A stretch of DNA of 63,684 nucleotides, the filler included, from Stramenopiles sp. TOSAG23-6 (taxonomy: Eukaryota), in NCBI GenBank assembly GCA_900128565.1. It is 8 parts of 8 records of this genome, joined end to end, with 100 filler letters (N's around TTAATTAATTAA, not from the genome) between each part and the next. Parts side by side here need not be neighbours in the genome. Positions count along the whole stretch, not along the records: positions 35,629 to 47,366 come from LT636243.1; 7 more parts are not named here. The stretch is one strand, 5' to 3'. This document shows, piece by piece, positions 11,971-56,110 of this stretch (position 1 is its first letter; the number at the start of each line of letters is the position of its first letter). A model generated the notes under the pieces. It saw only the letters and a list, made by a program, of their open reading frames with translations. It had not been told where the DNA came from and did not search any database. Both the position numbers and the translations under genes were made by a program.

Positions 11971-12970
11971 ACACTAAACCAGGAAGACTGTGATGTGTCA
12001 TAAAAGTAAAAATTGCATTTCCAAATAAACCAGATAAACCCTCTATATTAAAAAACATTTCAGATGGTAGAGTTGATGGGATTTTTGCTTTTGTGCCAGA
12101 GCCATCGATTCCAAATATATAAAGTGCAGGAAGTAGAAACATAATTGAAAATGCTATAAACCGTACAAAAACAACCATGACTTGTAAGTATTGCGAAAAT
12201 ATACATATATATATATATTTAATGTGTTAGGTACACAATGTTTTGGAAAAAAAATAGGTAAAAAAATCTTTATGAAAAATATCGTACAAGTAACGCGTAT
12301 TTTGAAAATTTCCCATACAGATTGGTACCATAAGTAACCATAAAACCATAGTAAAAAAGTAGTAGCTTTGTATACCTAGTATATGCGTCGTTGATGAAGG
12401 TGTCACTGTAAGAATGGATTGTACAATGCATACGGCATATGTACATAGTGTGCCAAGGAGATAGAGAACTAATGCAAGATAGCTCATCCAAAGAAGATAA
12501 CGCTGAGATTTTCGTCGAGTAAAAAACATTTCACAAAGTTCAGAAACTTCGATTCGATCTTGAAGAGAAAATAATTCATTGCTTTTAGGGTTAGGGTTCT
12601 TCAAAGGAACATCAAGTAAAGGCATTGAAAGACTATTTGAAGCAGTAGATGTATCATCTGGTGTTGGTATACTACTGGGATTAGAATTGTACATGTTTGA
12701 AGACTCTCTTCGCCAATACAAATTCCTCTTTGGCTTTTCACTCACACTTTCAGTAACACGAATAGCATTAGCTATTGACATTGCCTCGATAACAAAAGTT
12801 GCTGTGATGAATCCTAAGAGACAAACTAATATTAGAAATAGAGTAGATAAAATAATTCCAGCGCCTTTGAATGCATATGGCAAAGTCAATACTCCCGTAC
12901 CAAGAGCAAAATTGAAGAAAAACANTGTAGCAATGGCAGTGCCATATGTATCCACAGTAGTTTCTCTCAT
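11971..12970 (-). CDS. TMEM104: Amino-acid transporter family, TMEM104-like; exons 12970-12288, 12185-11971, 3'-partial
   Basis: FNFALGTGVLTLP; spliced NTRYLQV; FMTHHSLPGL. Confidence 0.75.
12186..12287 (-). mobile_element. Introner-like intron GT..TT, flanks tt/tt
   Basis: tac tt|gtacg...cgcaatac-tt|a caa gtc; restores the TRYLQ motif. Confidence 0.9.
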
Positions 12971-15804: not shown

Positions 15805-17307
15805 TTATTTCAGAAATATGACCATTACAGTAATATCATCATGAAGTTGTCTACGCGATTTCCCACTAGGGAGTAGCTGAAGCAAATCTGTAGTCATTCC
15901 ATTACGGGCTGCGGCCTTAGACAAAGCTACGTGAACAAGTCTATCAGCAGCGAGTTCGCAAATTCTACTTGGAGATAACTTCACGTTTTCAATATCTAGG
16001 GAGTTTCGATATTCACCAACGATATTTACTGCTTCATCGTTGGAAAGTTCGTCCCACAAACCATCACTAGCCATCACTACGAAAGATCCTTCAGGTTTCT
16101 CCCTCGTGATCACACTCTTTATTTTTTCATCTTCATCACAGATAGTGTTACTATTATTCGCAATTCCCATTCCTTTATTTTGTGTTCCCCAGCTAGGCAA
16201 GCCCAATGATGTATGAACGTCACCACTAAACTTCGAAAGTTTAGTCAGCATATTATCAATATCATTGATTTGTTCTGAACCTTCCGAATCTTCTGAATTT
16301 TGGTTAGGGTTAGGGTCCGAATCTTCTGAAACTTGATTATTGTCACAAATAGAATCAGAATTTTGACGTAAAAGATGAAAGACTGTAACTTCTGGTTGAC
16401 ATGATACATATGGCGGGGTATATGGGTCTGGAATGTGTCGCCCTCGTGCACGACCATATAGTCGACTATACTCCGGACCGTTATATGCCTTTAACTTGAG
16501 ATAAAGATCTCCAAAACCTCGAGCTGGCATCAACTTACCCTTAATATAGCAAGCCCCAGGGCGTTTACAACGAACTGTGTTTTCCCCAGGGTGGGCTAGT
16601 GCAAGTTCTCTCTGAATTTTCAGGCTATTTGCAGAATGATCAGTAGTAAGTGCAATAGCAGTCCAGGCATTGTAATCGATGGAAGCAGTATCTACAACTT
16701 CTTTTACAGCTTTCGTTCTGTGACCAAGAATAGCCCGACAGTCGCCTGCGTTAGCAATCACCAATTCATTGCCGTTTTCCGACAGGAGCATTACAAGACC
16801 ACAAGCTCCTACGCGACCACATTTTTCAAAACCCAAACGAAAAGCAGTTTGAATATTTTTTTCGTAGCAGTCATCGATCTCTAGAAAGGACTTAATCAGA
16901 CACATACTATCACTACCATTTGTACGAGATTTTATAGTATCAAAAATATGGTCAAATATATTGCGACAGACAAAATCAGCCACTTGCCAGCCACCATGTC
17001 CGTCGAAGACACCAAACACTGCCATATTATCACGTATTTGGACTCCATGTCGATCTTCAAGAGGTTTATTAGCGTTGTAACAAGACGAACCCCAAGCAAG
17101 TAAAGAAGGCACTTTTGCTACGGCATCTTCAACACATGTAAGACACCCGGGTGCCTTATTTTTGCTACTGTCATTTACACTTGTACAAAGTGGGCGAGTC
17201 TGTTGTCTAGCACTCAACAACAAATCATTTTTATCAACTTGTGGAAAGGCCCAAATTGCACCTGCTAGGGTACTAAAACCACCCGCTCCGACTAATACAC
17301 GACGCAT
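15805..17307 (-). CDS. PP2C/PPM family phosphatase
   Basis: GVFDGHGG, ANAGDCRA, MASDGLWD, HDDITV motifs. Confidence 0.92.
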   Translation of the reverse strand: MRRVLVGAGGFSTLAGAIWAFPQVDKNDLLLSARQQTRPLCTSVNDSSKNKAPGCLTCVEDAVAKVPSLLAWGSSCYNANKPLEDRHGVQIRDNMAVFGVFDGHGGWQVADFVCRNIFDHIFDTIKSRTNGSDSMCLIKSFLEIDDCYEKNIQTAFRLGFEKCGRVGACGLVMLLSENGNELVIANAGDCRAILGHRTKAVKEVVDTASIDYNAWTAIALTTDHSANSLKIQRELALAHPGENTVRCKRPGACYIKGKLMPARGFGDLYLKLKAYNGPEYSRLYGRARGRHIPDPYTPPYVSCQPEVTVFHLLRQNSDSICDNNQVSEDSDPNPNQNSEDSEGSEQINDIDNMLTKLSKFSGDVHTSLGLPSWGTQNKGMGIANNSNTICDEDEKIKSVITREKPEGSFVVMASDGLWDELSNDEAVNIVGEYRNSLDIENVKLSPSRICELAADRLVHVALSKAAARNGMTTDLLQLLPSGKSRRQLHDDITVMVIFLK

Positions 17308-19417: not shown

Positions 19418-19774
19418 TATATATTATCTAAAATAGTTTTTCAAACAAAATTCATTTTAGTCTCAAAACTCATGGGTGATGCAAATGAAAGTGAGTTAAG
19501 AATTAGGGTTTAGGGTTAGGATGCAAATGAAAGTCAGTTACTATGTAGAATTTGCCAAGGTTCAAAATGTATGATGCCAGACACGAGTTTCTCAATTTGT
19601 TACTTGAAAGTTTACATCACGTATAGATAAAGTATTCAAAATGAGTCTTTGTGTTTATATTGAATTTTTTTCTTAGGTACACAAAAAAAAAATAAGTTCA
19701 ACTTTGATAATGTAGTAGTATTGAAAAAAAGTTTTTGAGTTTTATATTTAAATCTAGTGTGTCTAACACAACCA

Positions 19775-21798: not shown

Positions 21799-22279
21799 TG
21801 CAAAGTATTGTTGGGTGATGAGAACTACTGATAAAAAAAACTCAGCAATATATTCATCATCATTCGAGAGCATATGAAAAGGGTCGAATTTGAAAACCCT
21901 AACCCTAGCCTAGCGCTAGACCTGTAGCTGTCCTACTTTCAAAATTTTCAAATTTATGCGAGTCGAGCAAGCGCTAGCGCGAGGATCTCGATTCTCGATC
22001 GATCCCGTAGTTAATTGGTACAAACCGGTAGAGTCTATCTAGAAAGTTGAGAGTGTTCAGGGGCCGAGAGATACTTTGTATATAGTAGTAGTATCGCAAT
22101 TTTTACGAAATAATTGAGTAGCCAGTGCTTGAATGCAACCGCTCTTATAAGGTTTTCACAAGTCATTCTATCATTCTCTAAATTTGCGGAACAGTGTTTT
22201 AGTCATCAGCTAGTGCCGCTTATTTTTAAATTCGACCTCAAAGTAGTCGGAATAACACAAATCGATACTTTTGAATTGG

Positions 22280-23831: not shown

Positions 23832-26070
23832 ATAACTTTCACTAGATCTATTACGACAATCTTTACTTAATGATTTCAATTCTTCACTATTCAGTAGTAA
23901 TGTTTTTGGCGGAGCATATCGAAATTTATTATTTTTATTTTTGTTGATTTTTTTTTCATTTTCTCGATGATACCGCGACATTACAAATTCATTAAATTGA
24001 TCTTTTGCACAAAAATTAGTCGTACTTTTTACTGTATGAAGGGTTTGAAGGTTTTGAAGGTTTTGAAGGTTTCGTTGTACAGTCTTTATATTTATTGGGC
24101 TCTTCGAGAGTGAGTTATTAGGATTATTAAGATTATTAAGATTATTTACATTTTGTTTTGATGATGAACCAAAATTAAACAGAACTGTCAGACTATCGGG
24201 GCGTTGCTTTAATCGTGCTAATATTGATTTTTTATCCTCTGGCATTTGTCGTTGAAACACTCGAATGACATCATTTGGAGTTGGAGGTAACGTAACTGGT
24301 TTTGATAGTATTCGAAATGGTTTTGAATTATTATTTTTTATAGTTTTTATAGACTTGCAGTGTCCTGATTCATTGTTTACATTATTTACATTTTGTACAT
24401 TATCTTGTGTATTATTTGTAGATATACATTGATTGGCTGCACGAGATGCAAGGTATGCAACTTGTGCAGCAAATGCATTAACAAAGAACTGTGAATAATA
24501 TTCTAATTTGAAAAATGTTAGGTACGAAATTTCGTATGAAACCCAAAAAAAAAAAAAAAAAATTACAAAAATTATAAAAAGGCTATAAAAATTATAAAAA
24601 GTAAAACAATTAGGGTTAGGGTTAGAAAATACGCTTTTGTCCATTTTTTACCTTTTCCAAAACCAAAATTTGGTTTTGCTTCATGAGGTAAATTATATTT
24701 TCGTTTTTTGTCATATTCCTCCTTTAGATTTAGAAATTCAGTTTTCTTTTGTCTACCCCAAAGAGTCACTGGACGCATTTGAGATTCTCTAGATTGTTTT
24801 TGTTGATTTTTTTTATTTTTTTTATTTTTTTTATTTTTTTCATTTTTTTCATTTTTTTCATTTTCTAATGTTTCATCATTTTTTTTATTTTGTTTATTTT
24901 CAATTGTTTCTAATGTTTCATCAATTTCTCGATTACGTTTCCAATCCAAATATAATTCAAGTTGTTTTGCATATAAAGCTTTTTCTTCTCTTCTTTTTTG
25001 TAAAGATTTTTGTTGATGTCTAATAATGTATTTTCGAAAAATATTTCAAAAAAAATTCTAAAAAATTTGTTAGGTACGAAATTTCGTATGAAAAAAATAA
25101 ATTCGAATTTTTTTTTACCGAAAAAAAAAAAAAAAAAAAACATACATTGATGTTTTTAAAGATTTTGAAGAAAACCCTCCAAAACCTTCAACATCAAACC
25201 CATTACCACTTGGACGTATACGTGGTAATGAAGCTCCATGGAATGTAAGGATATATTTTAATTTTGTTTTTGTTACAATATATACAATATAAATGTGTTT
25301 ATAATTATTCATTCAAAAAAAAAATATTTTAAAAATATTTTTTGTTAGGTACAAATTTTCGTATGAAAAAAAAAAAAAAAAAAAAAAAACGTACGTGATG
25401 TCGACCCAATTGTTTTCTTTCAAAATCTTTTTCTCTTATGACATCATTTAATGTAGAAACATAAACATCATTCTTCATACTCATATGCTCATTACAAATA
25501 TCAGTAATGACTGAACGTTTTATACCATTTTGTACAAATGGATGACTTAAGCCCTATACTGTGAAAAAACAAATTTAAAAAAAAAAAAATCTAAAAAAAA
25601 TTTGTTAGGTACAAAATTTCGTATGAAAAAAAAAAAGTTTTGAGTAGTACGAAAAACTGTACTTGATGATTATGAGCAGAAAGCAGCATTCTACGGCTTG
25701 TTGCTTCTCTATGAAGTCTATTTTGATTACTAAAGATATCACAAGAACGTTTATTTCGTCTGCGATCAAAGCCTATACTGTTTTTGGCTGATGTTTGAAT
25801 TTTAACATTACTTGAAGAAGAAGATTTCGCTGATTTCTGCATTTTATGTTTTTCTTTCCCTTCAGGAATAAATGAACGACCATCAGTGTATCCTTTCAAT
25901 CGTCTTCGAATCCCTGCGTTTGAGTGAACACCTAAACGACTCACTCGTGGTATAATACGTTGAATAAGTTGCGGTGGTACAACCAAAGCTTCTCTATTGA
26001 GCAAAGCATTCATGTTGTTGTCGTTTGTTTTTGTTTCTTTCATTTTTGTTTTTGTTTGTTTCATTTTCAT
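23832..26070 (-). CDS. Uncharacterised Asn/Lys-rich protein, 3'-partial; exons 26070-25663, 25553-25395, 25244-25146, 25025-24633, 24483-23832
   Basis: Four ORF fragments join in frame when family inserts are removed. Confidence 0.65.
24484..24632 (-). mobile_element. Degenerate introner-like intron GT..TT (flanks gc/tt), carries (TAACCC)2
   Basis: Family core present; using the nearby CAG would frameshift to a stop, the family-position end keeps the frame. Confidence 0.65.
25026..25145 (-). mobile_element. Introner-like intron GT..AT, flanks at/at
   Basis: tca at|gtatg...aaaatac-at|t att aga. Confidence 0.85.
25245..25394 (-). mobile_element. Introner-like intron GT..AC, flanks ac/ac, degenerate 3' motif
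   Basis: atc ac|gtacgtttt...atcctt-ac|a ttc cat. Confidence 0.7.
25554..25662 (-). mobile_element. Introner-like intron GT..AG (flanks aa/ag)
   Basis: cat caa|gtacag...cacagtat-ag|ggc. Confidence 0.8.
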
Positions 26071-26395: not shown

Positions 26396-27010
26396 TTAAA
26401 TATTCAATAACTTTTGCATGAGAACGTCACTTTCTAAAAACTTTTTTGAAGCTTCAGATCTTTCCTTTTTTGTTGTTAATGGATTGAAATCAAATGGTTT
26501 GAATCGATTGAGTGTATCAATTTTTTCACCATGTTGTGAATGATGAAAAAAATCAACATCATTTGGTCTTTGTTCATTTCTTATTGATTGTGTTACTATT
26601 CGATATAAATCATTTTCATTGTTAGTTTCATGTATTAAATTATCTGAAACAATGATTGGTGTTGAATTCAAATTAGGGTTAGGGTCTGAAACAATGATTG
26701 GTGTTGATTGTCGATTTTGTTGTAGGATGTGTTGTGATGTTTCAGGTATTTGCTGTATGATTTGAATGTCTCTTCGATTTTGGATATTTTCTATATTTCC
26801 TACAACTAAAGAAGGAGGAGCTAGTACTAATTTTGGAGGGTGATTTTGTACAGTTTCGTTCATTGTTTTCCCATCAGACGATATTGCATTCATCCACCAA
26901 GGGATTCCTGCATTATACCATGGCGGTGCTTTTTGTGCTTTTGGAATATTACTAGCCTTGACCGATATTGTTGAAGCAAAGACATATAAAATAATGATAC
27001 AGAGAAGCAT
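26396..27010 (-). CDS. Putative secreted orphan protein
   Basis: 204-aa ORF with signal-peptide-like N-terminus. Confidence 0.6.
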   Translation of the reverse strand: MLLCIIILYVFASTISVKASNIPKAQKAPPWYNAGIPWWMNAISSDGKTMNETVQNHPPKLVLAPPSLVVGNIENIQNRRDIQIIQQIPETSQHILQQNRQSTPIIVSDPNPNLNSTPIIVSDNLIHETNNENDLYRIVTQSIRNEQRPNDVDFFHHSQHGEKIDTLNRFKPFDFNPLTTKKERSEASKKFLESDVLMQKLLNI

Positions 27011-27431: not shown

Positions 27432-29633
27432 ATGTCGAGCATTCAACCAGAAAAAAAGGAATCTAAAAAGATTGAAGCTGAAGATACAACAATATCAAGT
27501 GTTCATGTAAAGTATGACTCTGAAACAGCGACCATGCAACGTTTTAAATCAAAAGAAGCACGAGAAAACGAGCAATGGGCGTATGGATTCGTTGGTTTTG
27601 TTACGGGTCCTCTTGTTATTTTGATGTCTTTGTGGACCCCCGCTTTATTATTACTTGCTGCAAATGACAGTACGTGTAGTTCTGGAACGGATAAATCGGG
27701 ACAAAGTTGTACTCCAGATCTTGATTGGGATCAGGACCACTGGGAAACAGCAAAAGGACAAATTAACTGTATAGAAACAGATACCTTTGGTGAAATTGTA
27801 TATGACCCTTTTATTCAAACACAAGCTTGCATACAATCTCTACAAGACTACCGGAATCTAGTACCAGCATTTACATGTAACTGTACAGGTGAATATTCTT
27901 TCTTAAACTCTGGACTTCGACCAGCCAACATACAAATTGTCATTGGAATCATAAATCATGTACGTTTTCAGCTTTTTTACTGTTACATTTTATTTATATT
28001 GTTTCAAAACTGTCCGTATTTAACAAAAAAACAAATGAAAAACAAATTAAACAATACATGCCTNTNTCATTCATTGCTCTTTTTTTCGGTGTCATTATTG
28101 ACTTTTCTGGTAATCGTTTAACCATGTGGAAAAGATTGTGGATTCTGACGGTCGTAACAACCATGTTGATGTATGTTTATTTTTTTTTTTTCGTAAATAT
28201 CTTTTTTTTTTTTTCATAGGAAATTTCGTACCTAACAATTTTTTTTTTTTTTTGGTAAAAATTTTTTGAAATATTTTTCCAAAATACATGGGTATTATTT
28301 TTAAAAATTATATATGGATTATTGGTTGTGTTTTTGCTGTAATTTGTTTTATATCACAAAATGCAAATTGGATGATTTATTGTTCATTTTTGAGTGATAT
28401 TGCAGATACAGATGAAGATAGAGGACGACTTGGTGGAATGCAACAGGCATGTATGTTTTTTTTTTTTTTTCAACTCAATTTTTTTTTTTTGGTTTCGTAC
28501 GAAATTTTGTACCTAACGATATTTTTTGTGATTTCGTGTTTTTTCACACAATACATGGAGTTATTCTGGCCAAGCTGTTTACATCATCACAGTTGGCTTA
28601 AGTGTCTCATTAATATTCAAAACTGCTCATATACCAGGCATTTTGGGTTGTATTGGTTGTGCATTATGGATGCTCTTCTTTATGCCAAGAGCATTAAAAT
28701 ATTTTTATGAACGTCCACCGAAACGAATGTATGTTTTATATGAATTTCTAATTTAAGTTTTTTTTTTTTTTTGGTTTTCATACGAAATTTCGTACCTAAC
28801 GATTTTTTTACAAAAAAATATTTTTTCATAATCCATCCGAGATGATCCAAATTTATCAAAACGAGGAAAATTTTTGCATTCAGTGAAGGAGATGATTGCA
28901 TTATTCAAAATTATACGTAAAAAATATCCTGAAGCATATAAATATTTATTTCTGTCAGTTGTGTCACGACAGGGGATTTATAGTATTTTAGCCGTATACG
29001 TGACATATTTTATAAGTCAAGTCAAATTGACTGGATTTCAAATTGTTATTATATGTATGTGTACCCCTAACCCTAACCCGAATGATGAATTTGAATTTTT
29101 TTTTTAAATTTTTTTTTTTTTAAATTTTTATTTTTTTTTTTTCGTACGACATTTTGTACCTAAGCTAACAAAAATGTTTTACAATATTTTTCACAAAACA
29201 TCTATTATTGTGTTAGTCGTTGGAGCACCATGTGGATACTTATTTACAAAAATTGTACAAAAGTTTTGTTTAAAAAAGATTTGGCAATGTTTAACTTTGT
29301 ATTGGGTTGCCGTCGGGATTATAACACCACTACTGATGTGCGTTTTCATTTTTTTTTTAGTAAAATTTTTTTCAATTTTTTTTTGGTTTTTTGGTTTTTA
29401 TAAAAAATTTGTACCTAACAATTTTTTTTTAGATTTTTGTTTTTTGAAATACTCTTCTACAATACATTTATGAGGAAGGAATGTTCATTCAATCATGTAT
29501 CGTGGGTGGTGGCTTATATGCTTTGGGCTTATCCTGGTACTTTTCGATTGCATGGCCAGCTTTTCAATCACTTGTGCCAAATGCATTAACTGCACAATGT
29601 AAGTTTTTATTATGTTTTTATTATGTTTTTATG

Positions 29634-29673
<40 letters not shown>

Positions 29674-30155
29674 CAAACTTTAATTTTTTTCAATTTTTAA
29701 TTTTTTTTCAATTTTTAATTTTTTTTATACGAATTTTTTATAACCTAACAATGTTTTTTTTTAATGTTTTTTTAAGAATTACATGTCTTGGGTTGTATGT
29801 GTTTGTTAATAACGCAACGTATTGGGTGGAACAATTAATTTATACCATTATAGTACAGGAGAAAAATGATCATCGATTGGCTATTGCAACACTTGTACGT
29901 TTTCATCAAATGTTTATCTATTAGGGTTAGGGTTTTCATTTTTTTTTTTTTTTTTTTTCATACGAAATTTCATACCTAACAACAAAACCATGTTTTCAAA
30001 TATTCTACAAAAAACTTGCCCCTTGGAGTTTTATTGCATTTTGTATAGTGTCTTTCATTGATTTTGAAAAGGGAAAAAAAGAAGCACAAAATATCGATAA
30101 ACAAACACTTGAAAGATTGGAAGTTGATCAGAATATTGAAAGTGGTGAAAAATAA
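27432..30155 (+). CDS. MFS transporter, Atg22-like; 9 exons separated by 8 introner-like introns
   Basis: Multiple TM segments; YCSFLSDIA; C-terminal IDFEKGKKEA; one frame after removing 8 inserts (two Ns in exon 2). Confidence 0.75.
27960..28059 (+). mobile_element. Introner-like intron GT..AT, flanks at/at
   Basis: cat|gtacgtttt...acaatac-at|gcc. Confidence 0.8.
28171..28289 (+). mobile_element. Introner-like intron GT..AT, flanks at/at
   Basis: ttg at|gtatg...aaaatac-at|g ggt. Confidence 0.85.
28451..28556 (+). mobile_element. Introner-like intron GT..AT, flanks at/at
   Basis: gca t|gtatg...acaatac-at|gg agt. Confidence 0.85.
28729..28836 (+). mobile_element. Introner-like intron GT..AT, flanks at/at
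   Basis: cga at|gtatg...cataatcc-at|c cga; first ~70 nt nearly identical to 5716 copy. Confidence 0.85.
29055..29201 (+). mobile_element. Introner-like intron GT..AT, flanks at/at; carries (CCCTAA)2
   Basis: ata t|gtatgt...cacaaaac-at|ct att. Confidence 0.8.
29338..29467 (+). mobile_element. Introner-like intron GT..AT, flanks at/at
   Basis: ctg at|gtgcgtttt...tacaatac-at|t tat. Confidence 0.8.
29599..29784 (+). mobile_element. Introner-like intron GT..AT, flanks at/at; contains (TA)n
   Basis: caa t|gtaagt...acctaac...aattac-at|gt ctt. Confidence 0.75.
29895..30017 (+). mobile_element. Introner-like intron GT..TT, flanks tt/tt; carries (TTAGGG)2
   Basis: aca ctt|gtacgtttt...aaaaac-tt|gcc cct. 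Confidence 0.85.
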
Positions 30156-31189: not shown

Positions 31190-32170
31190 ATGAAACGTCT
31201 CACATTCTTTAAATATATGGTGATTCTTGTAATTACACTTTTACATGATGTTATTTCTAGCGATGAAATAACGTCATCATTTCATGATTTGAAAAGAGTA
31301 ATGAAAACTGCAAAACACATTGAAGGATTATCTTCAATTACCAATAATATAAAAGAAATCGGTAGCATCTTTCTTGGAATAGTAGATAACGACATACAAG
31401 ATAATCTATCATCTTTGAAAGATGATACAAATATATCCGTAAAGGATAATATTCAAATATCATCATTTGGGAGTATATCACCAGTGAAAGTTCCCGCAGA
31501 GTTATTTAAACAAATAGAAGAAATACATAAATATACATTATTAACAAACGAAGCTTTTGAGAAGAAATTAAAATATGAAATGAACTCATTTAAGAAATCT
31601 ATTGACAAGAGACGGGAAATGATTCAAAATGAAATTAAACAACATCAGATAAATACGATCAATTTAAAAAAAATAATTGAGATGTTGAATAATACAATCA
31701 AACATTTTGGGAAGACTTTGATAAAAAAGAATCATGTATGTTTTTATTTTTTTTTTAAACAAAAAAATCGATTTTTTTTTTCGTACGAAATTTCGTACCT
31801 AACGAATTTTTTTGTGAAATATTTTTCCAAAATACAGCAATCGTCTCAGCGATTAAAATATGCAAATCTCTTGATTGAATTTGAAGCTAATAAGAGTAAT
31901 GTAAAAGTATTAATACTACAATCTAAAAAAAAAGAAATTATTAGTCGATTGAAATTAGATTTTTTTGAGAAAAATATAAAAAGTCGAAAAACAAGAATTG
32001 AAATGTCTCATTCAATGCAAAAAGGAATCCGTCAACGTTTTCACGTTGCACAGTTGCATCTTATTGATCAAGAGAAGATTATTAAAAAGTTATCAAAAAA
32101 ACAAAAGATTATTGATACATTAGACAATGAGAATGACGTCATAGATTATCTAAGAAAATACATGCATTAG
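31190..32170 (+). CDS. Putative secreted coiled-coil protein; exons 31190-31735, 31838-32170
   Basis: Signal-peptide-like start; in-frame family insert; stop supplied by a TTAGGG insert. Confidence 0.6.
   Translation: MKRLTFFKYMVILVITLLHDVISSDEITSSFHDLKRVMKTAKHIEGLSSITNNIKEIGSIFLGIVDNDIQDNLSSLKDDTNISVKDNIQISSFGSISPVKVPAELFKQIEEIHKYTLLTNEAFEKKLKYEMNSFKKSIDKRREMIQNEIKQHQINTINLKKIIEMLNNTIKHFGKTLIKKNHVCFYFFFKQKNRFFFSYEISYLTNFFVKYFSKIQQSSQRLKYANLLIEFEANKSNVKVLILQSKKKEIISRLKLDFFEKNIKSRKTRIEMSHSMQKGIRQRFHVAQLHLIDQEKIIKKLSKKQKIIDTLDNENDVIDYLRKYMH
31736..31837 (+). mobile_element. Introner-like intron GT..AG (flanks at/ag)
   Basis: cat|gtatgtttt...gtacgaaatttcgtacctaac...aaaatac-ag|caa. Confidence 0.85.
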
Positions 32171-32564
32171 GGTTAGGGTTATGATATATTAGACAATGAG
32201 AATGACGTCATAGATTATCTAAGAAAATACATGCATCCATTTTTTTTCAAATTTCTACTACCGGTAGTAGTGTTGTTGAACCCTAACCCTAATTAATTAA
32301 AAAACATTTTGATGCAATAATTTGAATAAATACACATTTTCCATCACGTTCCACCAGTTGGGGGGGAAATTTCCTAAGAAACCCTAACCCTAACCTAATC
32401 CATTTTTTTTTCATACGAAATATTGTACCTAACAAATTTGCCGGGGGAAATCCCCAAATCAAATTGAAAACCAACGGTTCCACCCCGAAAGACACACAAA
32501 GTTTTAATAATAATAGCAGTTTATAATTTTACAAGTAACTCTTTGACTGTGTTATTTATTAACA

Positions 32565-33792: not shown

Positions 33793-35528
33793 ATGTTAAG
33801 AACATCACAGAAAAAATTCATGATAGCAAAATCAAGAGTTAAAACACTCACAACAACCAATGGACGAGGAGTTAGGTTAGGGTTAGGGTCTCTCCGTTCT
33901 CATCAACATGACTTTTCTTCTCTTGTACCATTTCGTACCATTCATCCAAGGATTTCAAGAACTAGATCTTTAAAAAGAACACACAATGGACATCACTATT
34001 GTAGCTCTATATCTACTCAAAGAAATTATGGACAACGTCGACTATACAGCATGAGTAAAGGACATGGTAGAGGACGTGGTCAAGGACGTGGTAGTCATTG
34101 TAGTAGTGGGAATACACTTGGAACAATGGATAGAGGAAGAGGACGTGGAGGTAGAGGACGTAGTAGTGGGAATACACTTGGAACAATAGAGTTGTTAAGA
34201 AACAAGACTGTCCAAGAGAAATTAAATCAACGTCGTCCAATGTNTCCTCAATTGTTACGTACCTATCAAACATATTTTGAAGAATTATTGGATGCTGAGT
34301 TAGAAGCTGCAAAAGAACAAATACATTCAAGATTACGTCATTGGGATGTAAAACAACTTGTGAATGAAGGATACACAGTAACTCATCTAAAAGCATTATG
34401 TGTAAAACAAACAAATCATTTTTCAGTTCATTTATTTTTAGATAATTCTGCCTCATCATCAGTTCAACAAGTTTCTTGTACTACAACACAAAATAAACAA
34501 AATGAGCAAAATAAACAAAATAAACAAAACATACAAAACACAGGTAAAAAACATAAATTTACTCCTGGATCTACATGTACATTTTGTTTATCAACAGTGA
34601 ATCCAATTGAGTTTTTACAAAGTAATCATATAAAAAATGTAAAAAATGTAAAAAATGTAAAAAATGTAAAAAATGACGAAATAAAGCCTAAAATACAAAA
34701 TTATGTTGCGAATGGACGAGTACAAACAAAATCAGTAGATGGAAGTATTTTAACAATACAATTAAACGCTTCTGATATTCACTCTTTAGGTGGTCAACAA
34801 TTTATTAATAACAATATGTGGCGTTTAGATGTACGTTTTTTTTTTTTTTTGGTTTTCATACGACATTTTGTACCTAACGAATTTTTTGAAATATTTTTTT
34901 AGATTTTTTTTTTTTAAATTTCAAAAAAAAACAATTTCATACCTAACAAATCTTGAGTATATTATAATTTTTCACATTTCATGTTGCAGCGAATGAAATT
35001 TCTCATTCAAGAATGAAAAATAGTTTGGAAAAATTTGGAAGTGGTATAGGTTCTGTTGATACTATAAAAAATACAGGATTTTATAATAAAAAAAACAAAA
35101 ATCAATGGCATGGACCTGATGATCTTCGACAACATATTGTTCATGTTGCTTCATCAGGTGGATATTTACCATTGAATACATCAAAAGACAATTTTGAAAC
35201 TGATTTTGAAAATAATAAAATATTGAGTGATCCAATGGAACGAAGTTTATTACTACAAAATAATCCAATGGAACGAAGTTTATTACTACAAAATAATCCA
35301 ATGGAACGAAGTTTATTACTACAAAATAATCCAATGGAACGAAGTTTATTACTACAAAATAATCCAATGGAACGAAGTTTATTACTACAAAATAATCCAA
35401 TGGAACGAAGTTTATTACTACAAAATAATCCAATGGAACGAAGTTTATTACTACAAAATAATCCAATGGAACGAAGTTTATTACTACAAAATAATCCAAT
35501 GGAACGAAGTTTATTACTACAAAATAAT
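33793..35528 (+). CDS. Probable Upf1/IGHMBP2-like SF1 helicase N-terminal part, 3'-truncated; exons 33793-34830, 34983-35528
   Basis: YFEELLDAELEA..RL..W....L..EG and spliced WRLD|VAANEISHSRMKNSL; helicase core not in window. Confidence 0.55.
34831..34982 (+). mobile_element. Introner-like intron GT..AT, flanks at/at; two TACCTAAC motifs
   Basis: gat|gtacgtttt...cacatttc-at|gtt gca. Confidence 0.8.
35230..35528 (+). repeat. Perfect 33-bp coding tandem repeat (NPMERSLLLQN), about 9 copies, running into gap
   Basis: aatccaatggaacgaagtttattactacaaaat repeated with no spacers. Confidence 0.95.
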
Positions 35529-35628
35529 NNNNNNNNNNNNNNNNNNNNNNNNNNNNNNNNNNNNNNNNNNNNTTAATTAATTAANNNNNNNNNNNNNNNN
35601 NNNNNNNNNNNNNNNNNNNNNNNNNNNN

Positions 35629-35819
35629 ATTTATTTTTCGTACGAAATTTTGTACCTAACAAATTTCGAATTTAATTTTTTTTTACAATACATGTACGTT
35701 TTTAAAATTGAATTTCGAAATTATTTTTTTTTTTAATTGAATTTCAAACGTTTGTTTTTTAAAGTAAATTTTTTACCTAACGATTGTTGTACAAAAAAAA
35801 GCATTTTTTCACAATACAT
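35629..35819 (+). mobile_element. Two back-to-back introner-like copies (..35693 and 35694-35819)
   Basis: ...tacaatac-at|gtacgtttt...acctaac...cacaatac-at|. Confidence 0.8.
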
Positions 35820-38800
35820 ATTTATATACATAGAAATCTCCAAATGCGGGAGAAAACACAAACAATGACAAATCACAGAGGTCTTTTTCTTATCAAAAGT
35901 TTTGTTTCTAAATATGAAATGTCAGCGCTACATCGAGGGTTTATGCGATGGAAACGTTTTAATTTAAAAATGATTAAATTAAAGCGGCATAAAGCAGCGA
36001 CTAAAATTCAAGTGAATGTTAAAATATGGCAATCTCGAAAATTAATTGATCAAATACGGAATGCAAAAACTCATTTATATGATGTATCTAGATTGTTTGC
36101 AATTCGGATCTGTGAGTGGGAAAGAGTTGCTCGTAAACAGAAAAATTCCAGAATGTTTGAATTGAATTTAGATTTAGTGAGACTTCGTAATATTAAAGTG
36201 TTACGAAAGAGTGCATTAAAGATGCAGCAAGTATATAGAGGTAGACTTGGTCGGAAAGACTTTTTGGATCACAAGAATCTTGTGAGTAAAGCACTGATGG
36301 TTCAATGCGCATGGCGATCCAAGCAAGGTCGTTTTTCTTTACATTTGAAAAAGGTAGCATATGCTCAGCGCCAAGAGGATGAACGAATTGCTTCGATAGA
36401 TATTCAGAGAATTCGAAGATCACAATTAGCGAGACGAGTTCGAGCATCCAAGCAAGCTGAACTTGATGCTTTCCATGCCAAACTAGATCATATTCAGGAT
36501 ACCTGGAAACGTCTACGGAGAACATACTTTAAGAAGTGTAATCATGCGAGTGCAATGATGGATGCTGATGAGGAATCCCGAGATCGTTGGTTGGCATTGC
36601 TTGCTAAACAAAAGGCAGCAGCTACTATTTGCCAGACTTGTATGCGTGCCTGGTACGCACGTGTCACATACAAAGTTCGTCGCTTTGCCTGGAATACATC
36701 TGCATCAATGTTACAACGGACGTGGCGCAAAGTTCTTGAAGCAAGGTCTCATACAGATGAGTACAAAGAACGAAGAGCAGCGTTGAGACTCAAAGCAATA
36801 GATGCACAGAATCTTCTTATCCCATGGGTTAATTTATACCCAGAATTAGTTCTGAAAGATGTTGGTCATTTGTTGAAGAAAGATCCATCTCAAGTAGGAT
36901 ACTATGAAATTAATTTACTCGAAAAGGCAGAAGTAAAATGGGCATCATTTCATGTAACCACATTGGCATCACTGGAAGTACAACGCGTATTTCGAGGATA
37001 TTTAGGTAAATGTAAACGTAGTCAGGCATTTACCCGGCGTATAATTTTATTACAGAAGCGACACAACTGGGCATCAGTTATTTGTCAAAAAATATATCGT
37101 GGTCATCAAGGCAGGAGATGGAGTAAATCGTTTGATCTACAACAGCAGACCAGAGAACTCTTAAAGGAACTACCAGCAAAACTTGATATTAAATTTGGAG
37201 TTCGTTCGATTATATCAAAACGATACCAGCAGCTTTGGTATGATCAACAAAATGTTCTAGATAAAGCTTTGAAGTGGGGCAGACAGCATATTATCGAAAC
37301 AGCTTCTGCTGGTTTATTCCAGAGAATTTACAGAGGACATCAAGGGAAACTCGCTTATTTAGCTCGCCTGGCTATATTTAATAAAGACTCACAAGACGCT
37401 CTAGAATACACATCATGTCGATGTATTCAGTGTATTTGGCGTGGTGTATTTAGTCGTCGCACCCGAGATGCAATTGGAGTTATTAAAAGAATATGGGCAC
37501 TCGATCATAAGAGATATCCACAAATATTAACTCGAAAAATGCGAGAAATAGTGAATCTTCCACCAACAAGACTCAGTTTTGTTCAAATTGCTCGACTTCA
37601 CAGTGTAGCTGATGAGTGGGTATTATACACGCGTATGTACGTTTTCATCCTCTCAATTTAGAACTTATTTCTTTCGTAGAAAATTTTGTACTAAACATGA
37701 AATTTTTGAAATATTTTTTCACAATACATGGATATGGCAGCGCTTCGTGTTCAGAGGCGTTTCAGAGGGTTAAAGGGACGTTACTCATACATGTTAGTCC
37801 TCCAAGCCCGTAAAGAGCGTGTACGTTTTTAACATTCATTTCCAAATTTATTTTTGTATCGTACGAAATTTCGTACCTAACAATAAAAACTCAAAAAAAA
37901 AAATTCACAATACATGAACACGACCGAGCTGTCTGGGCAGCGAAACTAGTACAAAGAAACTATCGTGGGAGAAGTCATCGAATGAGTTTCATGCGATTAC
38001 TGCGTAAAGCCAAAGAGGATAAGATGAGAAAGCAATATAAAGAAGAGAGACGGGCAGAAATTGAACAAGAGAAATTCAAAATGCAATTAGAATATGAGGA
38101 GAAACGAGCACGTGTAGTTTTACTACATAAACAGAGACTTAAACAGCAAAAGATGAAAGTTGATTTAGCATGGAAAAAGCAACAGGCGAAGTTTGCCAAA
38201 GAAATGCTCCAAGCAACAAAAGAGGATCAGGATTATTTACACGATGTTCGCGTATTAAATGCTTGGCGCCAATATGCTGAAGCAGATGGTAGGGTGTACT
38301 ACCACAATGAACTTACTGGTGAATCTACATTTAATCCTCCTCCACATTGGAAGTATCCAAATGACGAGCCTAACAAATTATTATACTGGAAGAATTTCGG
38401 TGCTGTTAAGATTGCCGGAACTCAAACAATGTCCTTAGAAGAAGAAAATATATGTGGACACTGTCACTCAAACACTGTTCGTCGCGAATGCCATCAATGT
38501 GTTTCACGTTTTTGTGTTCCTTGTTACACGAAGTATCATCAAGAACCTGAAAGACAAGGACATACATATAAAATTGTTGAACCTATGGCTGCGCGAACTC
38601 TTAAATGTATTGAATGCGAATTTGCCCCCGCTGTTGTGCGTTGTAAGCAGTGTGAAGACGTATACTGCAAAGCTTGTTACCAAGATGTACATAGCAGAGG
38701 ACAGCGTACTAAACATACTTATGATGAATTTAAAGAAGGTGCAAAACTCTGTGTTGAATGTGATAAAGACTTTGCTACAAAAAAATGTCAACAATGTGGA

Positions 38801-39637
38801 GATGTATTTTGCGAGTCCTGTTCCAAAACGACTCATGCAAAAGGTAAAATGGTTGAACATACCATGCACGATCTTGATCCCTACGTGGCAGATAAACTTC
38901 TCAAGGGACAAGAATACTGTTCGGAATGTGAAGCTCGTGTTGCTATACGTGTCTGCGACCAATGCATTGATGCATTTTGCGGTCCCTGTTTTGATGCTGT
39001 TCATTCAAAAGGCAAACGAGCATTACATACATACACTGCGTATGAGAAGACAGGACGTGCCAGTGGTTGGGAAGAATATTGGGACGACGAAAAACAAAAG
39101 TATGTCTATTTTAATAAAATTACTAAAGAACAAAGAAGTACAAAACCTATTGAACTCATGGGTATTGATGAACGTGATGCATTTGTTCGTCAGCAACGTG
39201 AAGAAATACAGAAAGCAAAGATGGAAGCAAGTATTGTGAAACTAGAAACTCAACTCAAAGAAGAGTCTGAATTGCGAGCAAAAGCAGAAAAGAAGGCGAA
39301 GAAACTTCAGGATGAAAAAGAAGCAAAGGAGAGAATTAGAACGAATTTCAAACAAGGTGTGAAAAGTATAAAGCGCAAAATGATGTTTGGTAAAAGAGCG
39401 GCGGACATGCAAATGTTTGAAGAGGAAGAATTCCTACGCAAAACTGTTTTGGATAAAAATTATACTGCAGATAAGTATAAAGGAGATCTATTAAATGAAT
39501 TAGAAGATGATCGAGTTCAAGAACGCAAAGAAGCACACGCAAAAGCTAAAATAGAACGTGCCAGAATGAAAAAAGATCAAGTTGCAGATCAGTATGGTAA
39601 TGACGATGATGATTTTGAGGATGACTTCATTGATTAA
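35820..39637 (+). CDS. Large IQ-motif, WW and B-box zinc-finger protein, 5'-partial; exons 35820-37636, 37730-37820, 37916-39637
   Basis: Many Q..(Y/F/W)RG..GR IQ motifs; WW (WRQY..GRVYYHN..TGEST; GWEEYWD..YFN); four CxxC..CxxC..CxxC..H..H B-boxes. Confidence 0.85.
37637..37729 (+). mobile_element. Introner-like intron GT..AT, flanks at/at
   Basis: cgt at|gtacgtttt...cacaatac-at|g gat atg; next exon encodes an IQ motif. Confidence 0.88.
37821..37915 (+). mobile_element. Introner-like intron GT..AT (flanks gt/at)
   Basis: gag cgt|gtacgtttt...gtacgaaatttcgtacctaac...cacaatac-at|gaa. Confidence 0.88.
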
Positions 39638-39776
39638 TTTACTCATGTACCTTTGAAATAAATTTGTATTGCATGAAGATTTTATTATAAAATGAAACGC
39701 CCGATTTGAGGGAAACAGTTTTTACCGCTCTTTGTAACACTTCTTCATTTAATGGTATATATATATTATAAGGCAG

Positions 39777-39857
39777 GTACATTTTTTTTTTTTTTTNTTT
39801 CGTACTAAATTTTGTACCTAACATTTTTTTTTGATCAATTAGTAAATTGTACTTCAG
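39777..39857 (+). mobile_element. Introner-like copy GT..AG (flanks ag/ag) in probable 3' UTR
   Basis: gcag|gtacattt...cgtactaaattttgtacctaac...acttc-ag|. Confidence 0.65.
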
Positions 39858-39894
39858 AGGTTCAGAGGGCAAGTGCTATGAAATAGCATTAAAA

Positions 39895-42489
39895 TCACAT
39901 CAAATCATTATCATTTTGCATCAGTGCATTACCAAATCTAAAAACAATAGCATAGCTAAAATCATTTTTACCATACCAGCCAATGTTATTCGCTTTATTA
40001 TTCCTTCCAGGGCTACTTTTATGATCAATAATTTGTGCATCTTCCCACCATTCATTTTCACGTATTTGTCCCTCGGACTGTTCTGTATTTTTGAAATGAT
40101 TTGTATTATTTGTATTATTTGTATTTTTTGTATTGAAATAATTGCCCACATCAAGAGAAGAATCTTCATCCCAAGGAGGCGACGTGTGTTGTAATTCAAT
40201 TCTACACGTAACTTTCTTAAGTCCACGAAATTTGCAAGTATTGTGAAAAAATATTTTTTTTTCGTAAAAAAAAAAAATTCGTTAGGTACAAAATGTGTGT
40301 AGTAAAAAAATAAAATTTCAAATTCAATTTTGAAAACATATAATTCCAGCAACATTTGGGCAAAGAATCTATTTTTTCTTTCATACGTTTTTTTTCTAGT
40401 TTTTTCATTCTCATTTTTTCAAGTCTTAAAAATTCTTTTCTATTATTTGACGAAGATTTCGTTAAAGAACATTTTAATACATTTCGTGTACTTCGACGTT
40501 TCACAGGACTTTTATATTGATGTATACCCAATATTGTACCAAATGTTGTCCCTTCCGAATTTTTTATGAGTCGTTTGACATTTTGAATTTTTGATGGACT
40601 TTTCGTGCGGCTTCGAAGTTTTCTATATTGAGACTTTTTTACAGTTTTTAGAGGGATGTATTGAAAGAGAATATGCCATAAAAAAATATCGTTAGGTACA
40701 ATTTTTTTTTTTTTTTTTTTTTTTTANGNAAAAAAAAATAAATTAAAAATTTAAATATTGAAAACATACATATCTCGAAAGCGACAACCTTGTGTATCTT
40801 CAAGACTTTTGAGCATTTTACTTGATTTCCCATTGATGATTTCAGTGACTTCTTTTGTTGCACAATGAAGTTTACATCCCTCACTTAAAGCTAATTTTTT
40901 CAGGGTAGATTTTCTTCTCTTTTTTGATAATTCACATTTTGACAATGATTTTTTTTTCTTATTTCTAACTCTATTTTTATTGATATTGATTTCAACTTCC
41001 TTATTCATATCCTTGTACGTATTAATACGCAAATGATCGATTTCGCGTATCATATCTTGGTTTATAATTTGATCATCCACCATGCACTGTAAAAAAATAT
41101 GTTTTTTTTGTAAAAATAATGTTTGGGACAAAACTGTTTTTATGGAAAAAAAAAATGTTAGGTACGGAATTTCGTACGAAACAAAATTCAATTTTGAAAA
41201 CATACACATCTTTTAAAGCCTCAACGTCCTCAGTTGGCGATAAAACACGAATAGCATGTTTACATAAACAACGCCCTTCACCATATCTTGAAATATCGCT
41301 CATTACGTAACCAGAGCCACAACTCTGAGTCCAAGATGCAGATTTATCACCCATAACCAATGTTTTGTGAAAAAAAAGTTTTTTTTTTTTGATTTTTTTG
41401 TTAGGTACGAAATTTTTATAAAAAACAAAATAACTTTTTGTATGAAAAAAAAACGTACTTGAAACTTCACGTAAACATGGTCCTAAAGTTACACCAACAA
41501 TAATATGACCACCATTGGTAAATGGATCTTGATGAAGTCCTCGCTTACTTTTACGTCCCATACTTTGACGAATGAGTTGTTAAAAATATATATTTTTTTT
41601 TCGTTAAAAAAATCGTCAGGTACGAAATTTTCTATGAAAAAAAAAAAAAAGATATTCATGATGAAAACGTACATGAGTTGTACTACGTGAAGCGGCGCTG
41701 TTCCAATCTCATTTGAAAAATGGCGGCGTACTATTGCTGCAGCTTCATCAAGTATTGTACCTTCAACACGCGGGGCACTATCTCCTAATTGGTATTGATT
41801 GGATGAACCACTCTTTACCCAAGAACGAGCACAAGTATTGTGAAAAAATATTTCAAAACAAAATCGTTAGGTACGAAATTTCGTATGAAAACCAAAAAAA
41901 AAAAATTAAATTAGAAATTCATATAAAACATACACATTGGTAAATTTAATTTCTCCTGTGCTTCAAACTCTTCCTCTAAAGCTTCAGTTTTGCACCACAG
42001 TTCCCACATTCCTTCCTTGGCAAGCTTAAATAGTGGGCGATGAGCACGACTGCTTCGGGTGGGTATTTTTGAAGAATTATGGTTTTCAAAATTTTGAAAG
42101 TAACGAACAATTCTTCTGCACATCTGAGGGTCAAATATATCCGAAGACGCATTGAAACCGCGCTCTTTGAAATACTGGCGCTCTTGATGTCGTAGAAATG
42201 CGCGTTTACGCCGTTCTTGCTTCTGGAGCTTGAAAGAGATCAACAAAAATGAGACGATAATCAAAAGTAATCCAACACATTTAAAATATAGTACATAATT
42301 TGTTGACACCACTTTGTTGAAGAGTGTAATAACGAATGATAACTGATTAAATACAGTGCTGTGAGCTGTCTTAAAGTCGTCATTTATAAATGGCATGATT
42401 GAAAATGCCACTATCAGTACAAACAAAGTAAAAATTGAAATTAACGTATAATCATATCTATATTTTTTGAGCTTTTTAGCATTAGCCAT
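39895..42489 (-). CDS. Membrane-anchored protein with AlkB-like 2OG-Fe(II) oxygenase domain; 7 exons
   Basis: Two N-terminal TMs; spliced GLHQD..IVGVTLG..GSGYVM..SRY..KHAI (HxD..H); frame continuous after removing six inserts. Confidence 0.6.
40236..40341 (-). mobile_element. Introner-like intron starting AT, ending TT, flanks tt/tt
   Basis: aat t|atatgtttt...gtacctaac...cacaatac-tt|gc aaa. Confidence 0.75.
40656..40769 (-). mobile_element. Introner-like intron GT..AT, flanks at/at
   Basis: gat at|gtatg...tcaatac-at|c cct. Confidence 0.85.
41082..41205 (-). mobile_element. Introner-like intron GT..AT (flanks gt/at)
   Basis: gat gt|gtatg...tacagtgc-at|g gtg. Confidence 0.75.
41360..41458 (-). 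mobile_element. Introner-like intron GT..AT (flanks aa/at)
   Basis: tca a|gtacg...cacaaaac-at|tg gtt. Confidence 0.8.
41572..41672 (-). mobile_element. Introner-like intron GT..AT, flanks at/at
   Basis: ctc at|gtacg...acaactc-at|t cgt. Confidence 0.8.
41833..41933 (-). mobile_element. Introner-like intron GT..TT (flanks gt/tt)
   Basis: atg t|gtatg...cacaatac-tt|gt gct. Confidence 0.82.
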
Positions 42490-49540: not shown

Positions 49541-49630
49541 GTACGTTTTCAAAAAGTAAATGTTTTTTTTTTATAGAAAATTTCGTACCTAACAAAAAAA
49601 ATGAAATTTTTTTTTTTTTTCACAATACAT
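49541..49630 (+). mobile_element. Introner-like intron GT..AT, flanks at/at
   Basis: aca gat|gtacgtttt...cacaatac-at|gag. Confidence 0.85.
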
Positions 49631-54972: not shown

Positions 54973-56110
54973 ATATTATAGGCACGAAGTTGAGATATAT
55001 GGCCATATAGAAACTCCACTAGACACCAATGGCTTATCATTAAATTATTTCTTCCCTCCTTTTCCCATAAATAGAAGTAATAAATGGTATAAGTTGCGAT
55101 ACTTTATAATTGGATTGAAATTTTAAAACTAAATTTTAAAAACACAAATTTTTCACTTATCTTCATTGCAGACCGTTGCAACGTATTCATGAAGAAGTCT
55201 CCAGAGAAGTTCCTTTAAAGATCTACCCTGGAATCCATTTTAAAACTCATTTACACTTTTAAATGTTATATTGCTTATTTTTTGGATAGGTATTTTGAAG
55301 AAAAACCTTCTCAAAGAAATATTATTTATGTAAACACTCTGCTACGAGTAGATAGAAAGAACTAACTCAAGAATTCAACATAAATTTATTAGTTTTCTGG
55401 CTCGAGCCAATACACACAACTTTTATACTCGAAGCTCCCTACAAAGAAATACTTGATAAGTTTTACTAATTGAAAGAGTCAGAACTATTCAAAATATTAC
55501 CAAATCATCAAACATCTTTTTCCATGTCAAAATGCTTACTCAATGTAAACCAAGTTTAAAAAACAATGCAACGAAAAAACAAGTACCTCCAAATAATAAA
55601 AAAATTGTTGCGGGTTCCATTATAAATAAGTTATAATATACGATTATTCGACCTCTGGTGGCGATGCTTTTAATATTTTGAGAAATTACAATAGTGATAC
55701 CGTAACAACACAGAGTAGCTTGTAAAGAATCATTGCGATTGATCACTGGATACTAGCTGTTATATTTTGAGTAGAACCCTAACCCTACGTAATCTATCAA
55801 GCATCCTTGAATCTACTATATAGTTCCCTTAATTATTTCCCCTGAAAGAAGCGCATCTATATTATGTACTAGTGACAAGAATGAAAACGCCAGAAGTTAA
55901 AGGACTATAAAATCAACTCAAAGGAGATCTATTTTTTTGTGGAATATGGCAATGTAACAATAGAAAGTTTATGGTTGTAAAACTAGTCAATATTTTTTGG
56001 TCATTCCAAATTGCTTTTAATCTTAACTATGTAGATTATAAATTGATAATAACTATTTATCACATGATAATCTAAAACTTTTAATAATGAATTGTGATAT
56101 TAATTATGAT

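Follow-up and report, generated by a model that had tools for sequence, protein, structure and literature searches.

A putative end-to-end pair of introner-like elements upstream of an IQ/WW/B-box gene in an uncultured marine eukaryote

Gene content and layout of the locus

The DNA analyzed here, referred to as the window, is a stretch of 63,684 bases from Stramenopiles sp. TOSAG23-6, which is not one molecule but a chain of eight small contigs connected by N44-TTAATTAATTAA-N44 linkers (five of ~11.7 kb and three of 1.4 kb) with a GC content of 27-41%. Its open reading frames are those of eukaryotic genes, including genes for a protein kinase, PP2A-A HEAT repeats, PP2C, an aldo-keto reductase, NPL4, an ion channel and a Hint module, and an Rfam search of the whole window returned 0 families. 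When public sequencing runs were searched, the word share of the stretch was 0.94 in one small 2015 run, which is probably the source run, and, within a single study, 0.76, 0.50 and 0.48 in three seawater DNA runs of 2024, and marine RNA libraries contained small word shares. From this occurrence in seawater DNA runs and marine RNA libraries, the host is an uncultured A/T-rich marine eukaryote.

Several repeats of other kinds were also observed. The third contig terminates in a 33-nt tandem repeat (35164-35528), and a 97-nt tandem repeat occupies an entire 1.4-kb contig (59283-60683). Telomere-like runs of (CCCTAA)2-4 are scattered over the window, with 19 matches at ≤1 mismatch against 0.11 expected (among them 5250-5273, 6466-6477, 12585-12596, 16304-16315, 19510-19521, 21897-21908, 24610-24621, 26673-26684, 29065-29082, 29921-29932, 32167-32178, 32281-32292, 32382-32393, 33877-33888, 55777-55788 and 62431-62442). 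The runs at 29065, 29921 and 24610 lie just inside repeat introns, and at least one run, that at 16304, lies within an open coding frame, that of the PP2C gene.

The locus of interest is at the start of the fourth contig, preceded by a non-biological, unstranded linker (35529..35628; N44-TTAATTAATTAA-N44). The first unit, copy A (35629..35693, plus strand), begins at the base following the linker and reads ATTTATTTTTCGTACGAAATTTTGTACCTAAC...TACAATACAT, also written ...TTTTTTTACAATACAT. It contains a T-run, the core CGTACGAAATTTTGTACC (35639-35656, plus), the branch-like motif ACCTAAC (35654-35660, plus), the end of which is 33 nt from the 3' end of the unit, and the terminal TACAATAC-AT (35684-35693, plus); the 3' end of the unit corresponds to the family 16-mer with one mismatch. 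Because contig 4 begins at 35629, what is present of copy A amounts to the last 65 nt of an element, the 5' splice site and upstream exon falling outside the data. The second unit, copy B (35694..35819, plus), is a complete element of 126 nt. It opens at 35694 with GTACGTTTTT, or GTACGTTTTTAAAATTG as also written, in which GTACGT (35694-35699, plus) begins an intact GTACGTTTT; its core palindrome is degenerate, its ACCTAAC (35775-35781, plus) is separated from the 3' end by 38 nt, and it closes at 35819 with CACAATACAT, that is CACAATAC-AT, the family end motif TTTTTTCACAATACAT (35804-35819, plus) being present with no mismatches. The AT at 35692..35693 (plus) is common to both units, since it forms the last two bases of copy A and directly precedes the GTAYGT of copy B, and is read as one copy of a target duplication. 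At the join (35693/35694), a putative 3' splice-site motif therefore directly abuts a putative 5' splice-site motif (...TACAATACAT|GTACGTTTT). The letters at 35629-35819 are as the initial annotation had given them, with the tail of the first unit abutting the second and nothing between.

Downstream of copy B, 24 nt (35820..35843, plus) lead to the first ATG, and these are open in the frame of that ATG (8 codons), a length at which coding sequence and 5' UTR are indistinguishable. As a second ATACAT followed by AG occurs here (35826-35833), the 3' cut of copy B at 35819 is a candidate. The ATG at 35844 opens a gene (35844..39637, plus) for a protein with an IQ motif, WW domains and B-box zinc fingers, in which two ordinary introns of the family, one of 93 nt (37637-37729, plus) and the other of 95 nt (37821-37915, plus), separate IQ-motif exons and keep the frame. 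Judging from this arrangement, the pair would be located in the 5' UTR or ahead of the first visible coding exon of the IQ/WW/B-box gene.

A family of introner-like elements

The family was defined with a profile HMM constructed from 31 curated copies, including copy B, and applied with a cutoff of E≤0.01. The search yielded 46 matches, two of which were reverse-strand echoes of the palindromic core inside other matches, and thus 44 separate family matches were found in the 62,919 non-N bases of the window, or ~1 per 1.4 kb. The profile matched 35626-35693 at its positions 28-99 of 99 (E 1.4e-10) and 35694-35819 at its positions 1-99 (E 1.3e-10), the latter score being partly circular owing to the use of copy B in the profile. 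With E values of ~1e-10 each, both halves of the pair are family members far beyond chance. The profile matches together with the alignment thus bear out the earlier assignment of both halves to an introner-like family; the description of one copy followed by the next holds insofar as both match the family, but the first copy consists of the 3' 65 nt only, being cut by the contig start.

The copies reside in genes for kinase, PP2A-A, transporter-like, Sec16-like, Hint-domain and IQ/WW/B-box proteins, all in sense orientation relative to the genes, and subfamilies can be recognized by non-signal sequence motifs common to copies in unrelated genes. In the alignment, the 5' part of the family, (C)AT | GTAYGTTTT, is followed by a variable A/T-rich stretch and a T-run, behind which come the core CGTACGAAATTTYGTACCTAAC, a further T-rich segment in which GAAATATTTTT is frequent, and the 3' end YCAMAATAC plus two nucleotides. 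The elements are 81-152 nt long (median 106), with 33-75 nt (median 37) between the end of ACCTAAC and the 3' end, and start with G in 30 of 31 copies and have T at position 2 in all 31. Based on these features, the copies most likely constitute an introner-like family of ~100-nt spliceosomal introns.

At the DNA level, the family core CGTACGAAATTTCGTACG forms an almost perfect palindrome located directly 5' of the branch-like CTAAC (35639-35656 and most copies). Common core variants such as CATACG...CGTACC break the pairing with no compensatory change, and RNA folding of copies A and B together gave z = -0.65, no better than shuffles. On account of these two results an RNA hairpin in the core is not claimed; the uncompensated variants suggest instead that the palindrome acts in the DNA or as a site for protein binding. 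Two kinds of unusual copy were also noted. The family intron at 40341-40236 (minus) starts with ATATGT instead of GTAYGT and ends in ...ATAC-TT, with TT before it and the frame kept. In addition, partial core copies at 32400-32442 and 24551-24486 are missing the usual ends; they neighbour telomere-like runs and are situated within other introns or upstream of them.

Two seawater DNA runs (X2 and X3) and two marine RNA libraries (X5 and X9), stored as contigs, were compared with 35629-40726. The summed contig word depth of the intron repeat in these data was ~10^2 to 4x10^4 as against 0-24 on unique parts, with high stretches at 35629-35798, 37669-38008, 39709-39878 and 40219-40388; for the core motif, it was ~44,000 in X2 and ~17,000 in X3, compared with ~3-9 on unique parts. 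These depths suggest thousands of copies of the intron repeat in the sampled populations, the depth being a sum over all copies, possibly including those of relatives or other organisms, and not a copy number. The core motif was found in 0 viral_contigs and 0 prokaryote genome_contigs. The excess of core word depth over the unique parts indicates that contigs break at the repeat, and because copies of the repeat intron contain 4 of the 16 contig ends (11883, 23663, 23764 and 35629), the repeat intron limits assembly of this genome.

Putative splice borders and reading frame

As examined by a frame script over the 31 curated copies, removal of GTAYGT...C plus two nucleotides kept the reading frame in 27 of 27 testable copies, for which the chance expectation is ~1 in 3 where one downstream frame is open and the evidence is weaker in about ten cases with two open frames. 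The copies at 232, 35694, 39777 and 40769 were outside the test, copies A and B having no upstream exon. The contigs of the RNA libraries X5 and X9 over 35629-40726 were, among the records listed, exon-internal only, with no intron-spanning record.

The last two removed bases in the 31 copies were AT in 22, TT in five, AG in three and GT in one, and the 3' ends are thus mostly non-AG. Ends of the ...AC-AT style are exemplified by the introns at 28171-28289, 37637-37729, 49541-49630 and 34831-34982, and plain GT-AG members by those at 31736-31837, 25662-25554 and 39777-39857. Owing to the 2-bp repeat, the mRNA would for most copies be identical whether the cut is GT...AT or lies two bases further upstream (AT...AC). 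At introns with unequal dinucleotides, either cut is in frame and a single residue changes: R or H at 37821-37915 (plus; flanks GT/AT), R or W at 62057-61966 (minus; flanks AC/AT), H or Q at 31736-31837 (flanks AT/AG), and M/I, M/L and V/M in introns of a SWIM-like gene; differing flanking dinucleotides occur at 41933-41833, 41458-41360 and 41205-41082 (all minus). When exon 3 of the IQ/WW/B-box gene was used as a query, only relatives of ≤52% identity were obtained and the alignment did not fix the junction residue (R/H); a Sec16-like exon retrieved nothing, and neither search returned a protein of the same species. Since spliceosomal cleavage falls immediately before GUAYGU, the cut GT...(A/T/G)T is favoured here over AT...AC as the probable one.

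At 34982, the frame requires ...TTTCAT|GTT though an AG sits 7 nt downstream, and in several copies (e.g. 232-341) an AG that lies past the branch motif but ahead of the 3' end goes unused. Judging from the AT end at 34982 and these bypassed AGs, choice of the 3' site seems to depend on the extended end motif rather than on the first AG.

A two-base shift of the cut would make most family copies AT...AC, as in U12-type AT-AC introns, and the branch-like CCTAAC resembles the U12 branch consensus. U12 introns have the 5' consensus (A/G)TATCCTT and a branch site ~10-15 nt from the 3' end. The U12-type reading was rejected, given that the family has GTAYGTTTT and not ATATCCTT at its 5' end, that its motif is 33-75 nt from the 3' end, and that the shifted first two bases would vary among AT, TT, GT, AG, AC and AA.

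Flanking direct repeats and putative insertion site

The dinucleotide preceding GTAYGT recurred as the final two bases of the removed segment in 23 of 31 copies (22 of 30 when copy B is left out), the matching pairs being AT/AT in 17, TT/TT in four, and GT/GT and AG/AG in one each, and in all eight mismatched pairs one base is shared. When the 3' dinucleotides were shuffled among copies, matches averaged 13.7 and peaked at 22 over 100,000 trials, and 23 was never reached. The covariation of the dinucleotides, above all that of TT with TT, fits a 2-bp target duplication and not two independent splice-site consensuses. The AT at the join had been proposed to be a duplicated dinucleotide, and the excess of matches over the shuffles supports its reading as part of a 2-bp direct repeat flanking the element.

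The reconstructed pre-insertion site has C at -3 in 12, A at -2 in 23, T at -1 in 26 and G at +1 in 17 of the 31 copies; as the window background for C or G is ~17%, a pre-insertion preference for C-AT-G emerges. The terminal inverted repeat is GTA(T)...(A)TAC, with three positions kept in 27-29 of 31 copies and the fourth in 14 of 31. Because these inverted ends measure only 3-4 nt, the case for insertion with target duplication is the flanking repeat itself.

Authenticity of the join

Judged from this one assembly, the join is probably real, and we would put considerable though not full trust in it. Its breakpoint coincides to the base with both element borders and leaves a single AT, a join that a random chimera would rarely yield. 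In an X3 contig of 223 nt from the 2024 seawater DNA, which aligns with 35709-35928 with two homopolymer-length differences, copy B is independently placed before the IQ/WW/B-box gene. An X2 contig of 60 nt aligns with 35634-35693 with two mismatches and one gap and stops exactly at 35693; this contig is probably another copy of the repeat. Likewise, the listed joints and loose ends around the pair are cross-matches from other repeat copies.

The strongest rival is an artefact of assembly or amplification, in which the terminal 65 nt would derive from another copy of the repeat by a chimeric read or a wrong extension, with no tandem in the genome. Such an origin is suggested by the position of the join, 65 nt from a contig end in an assembly where a quarter of such ends fall within the repeat, by the scattered N in the contigs, which point to a modest consensus quality, and by the comparison with the X2, X3, X5 and X9 records, where among the records listed (the longest ones, with 5856 more beyond) no contig bridged 35693/35694. 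We nevertheless regard an artefact as unlikely, because the breakpoint matches the 3' border of copy A and the 5' border of copy B to the base and leaves one AT and no more, the homology between the two sides is CATG-sized, about four bases, and would not suffice for a mis-join by overlap or by k-mers, and the resulting structure is the one that the flanking repeat of the family itself predicts.

Metagenome contigs were also scanned for ACCTAAC-N(20-50)-ATACATGTAYGTTT, and 30 loci were obtained. These were rejected as tandem junctions and regarded as chance matches, since the family core or T-runs were found in 0 of 30, the scan having no baseline for the presence of the family in this collection.

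Formation of the pair

The arrangement can be explained by the insertion mode proposed for the family. An element would insert with a 2-bp duplication, usually of AT within C-AT-G, and, since G is the first and C the last base of an inserted element, both of its borders would again read C-AT-G. A later insertion into the AT of such a border would give [A]-AT-[B]-AT, with zero spacing between the units. The suggestion in the initial annotation that the second element entered the duplicated dinucleotide of the previous one predicts exactly the ...ACAATAC-AT-GTACGT...CACAATAC-AT that is seen, with a single AT at the join, whereas insertions into two neighbouring ATs would leave AT-AT. Over their common part, copies A and B are dissimilar, with identities to the consensus of 0.77 and 0.69, respectively, and with different inner motifs. 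In view of these wide differences, two insertions are likelier than a local or recent tandem duplication.

As a second rival, the DNA could be real and copy A a dead 3' fragment, or a product of recombination or partial duplication, in which case the two units would form one compound intron or an unspliced leader. Partial or fused copies do exist in the window (34831-34982, matching profile positions 25-88 and then 33-98, as well as 32400-32442 and 24551-24486), and the 5' part of copy A is beyond the contig start. Unlike the fused intron at 34831-34982, however, the units abut here at their very borders and each has its end motif intact at the join, copy A retaining the family 16-mer with its one mismatch and copy B an unbroken GTACGTTTT, and we therefore consider this explanation quite improbable.

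It is hardly credible, finally, that the elements are DNA segments excised from a somatic genome like ciliate IESs, with the pair representing two adjacent excision units: ciliate IESs are short, A/T-rich and bounded by a 2-bp repeat, with TA-bounded excision, and the present elements are likewise short and A/T-rich, interrupt coding frames, have a density of ~1 per 1.4 kb and lie between 2-bp direct repeats, one of which would be retained on removal, but they carry a GTAYGT 5' splice site, a CTAAC branch-like motif at a fixed 3' distance and a T-rich tract in sense orientation, occur together with exons in seawater DNA contigs (X2 record 37703-37888), and accompany long ORFs that read with the standard code, unlike those of most ciliates. 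An IES of the ciliate type was thus rejected, the flanking repeat being AT/TT/GT and not TA, spliceosomal signals being present and the code being standard.

Taking these considerations together, we lean slightly toward a genuine end-to-end pair formed by two members of the introner-like family.

Possible routes of removal

Each unit would contribute a branch-like motif and a 3' end of its own, and copy B a 5' site as well. If copy A were removed first, the upstream exon would be joined to G35694 and exon|GTACGT would be recreated for a second round; if copy B were removed first, the 3' end of copy A would be recreated adjoining the exon at 35820; and in a one-step removal, the 5' site of copy A would be used with the branch motif and 3' end of copy B. 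According to the initial annotation, the pair has to be spliced out recursively or as one compound intron. This amounts to a list of options, and a need for recursion does not follow, as the three routes would give the same mRNA. The compound of A and B would measure ~225 nt, compared with 152 nt for the longest family intron in the window. Given that the family introns are short, that the units are self-contained, and that the compound would exceed this maximum, removal unit by unit with the upstream unit first would be expected.

Relation to known introners and composite introns

Introners, as known from Micromonas and other organisms, are many near-identical short introns in unrelated genes that bring their own splice signals, and the same appears to be true of the present family, in which high copy number, sense orientation and frame-restoring removal were all found at the sequence level. 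DNA-transposon introners of Micromonas and Aureococcus reportedly build one splice site from the target duplication. Different from Micromonas-type introners, the present family ends mostly in ...AC-AT and not in AG. Merged introners are reported to occur in Micromonas at low frequency (PMC4815162); compared with these, copies A and B meet border to border with one common 2-bp repeat and no internal fusion.

The introners of Amoebophrya are reported to have direct repeats of 3-5 nt across the exon/intron borders and inverted repeats of 8-20 nt, with no canonical 5' site and no clear terminal signature (PMC7789003). The present family shares with transposon introners and those of Amoebophrya a cut made ambiguous by a direct repeat, splice signals supplied for the most part by the element, and partly complementary ends; it differs from the latter in its 2-bp repeat, its inverted ends of 3-4 nt and its canonical GTAYGT 5' site.

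In Drosophila, recursive splicing takes place at zero-nucleotide-exon ratchet points in long introns (10.1101/006163, PMC8605326). The A/B join resembles these ratchet points in that a putative 3' splice site abuts a putative 5' splice site and that its use would recreate a 5' site. The ratchet points of Drosophila subdivide very long introns and have a conserved AG|GTRAGT, whereas the A/B join reads ACAT|GTACGT, involves units of ~100 nt and would originate from repeat insertion, and its recursive use is putative.

Fungal stwintrons consist of two U2-type introns in one intervening sequence, and some belong to repeated 'sister' families; a splice signal of the outer intron is split by the inner one, which has to be excised first (PMC8469720, PMC9024468). 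The stwintron reading of the pair was rejected, as the units abut with no overlap under either cut, no signal is split and any order of removal works.

Expected frequency and significance

Assuming uniform insertion into AT, the ~43 elements and 6275 AT dinucleotides of the window lead by simple arithmetic to ~0.29 end-to-end pairs expected per window, and hence the presence of one pair is unremarkable from density alone. The preference for C-AT-G raises the expected number of border insertions above this value. Genome-wide, roughly 1 element in a hundred is expected to be in such a pair. One other adjacent pair appeared in the profile census (34841-34898 and 34907-34981), and this is an internal fusion, seen as a 152-nt intron (34831..34982, plus) on the neighbouring contig that contains two ACCTAAC cores and represents a partial fusion of two elements. 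Since this intron sits inside a coding gene, introns with a double core are tolerated.

In our non-exhaustive literature search, we found no border-to-border introner pair sharing one target duplication and no GT-AT introner family in a marine protist, and the words 'tandem' and 'nested' had 0 occurrences in the main text of PMC12130899. The pair is a modest variant of known things, merged introners having already been reported in Micromonas, and it looks like an occasional by-product of the insertion mode of the repeat and not like a new splicing mechanism. The family outweighs the pair in interest, being dense and highly conserved, with non-AG 3' ends and a 2-bp flanking repeat.

If the join is real, the pair would record the landing of one introner on the border of another, a border that mimics the preferred C-AT-G site, and would offer a compact natural test of whether an intron-definition spliceosome re-splices at a zero-length exon. 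As a broader and doubtful possibility, nearly all introns of this organism could be copies of one mobile element that is spliced as GTAYGT...AC-AT by its end motif despite nearby AGs, homes beside itself because its borders restore the favoured C-AT-G target, and generates zero-length exons that are re-spliced. If true, the introner system would be self-targeting, and its short introns would serve as a natural model of recursive splicing.
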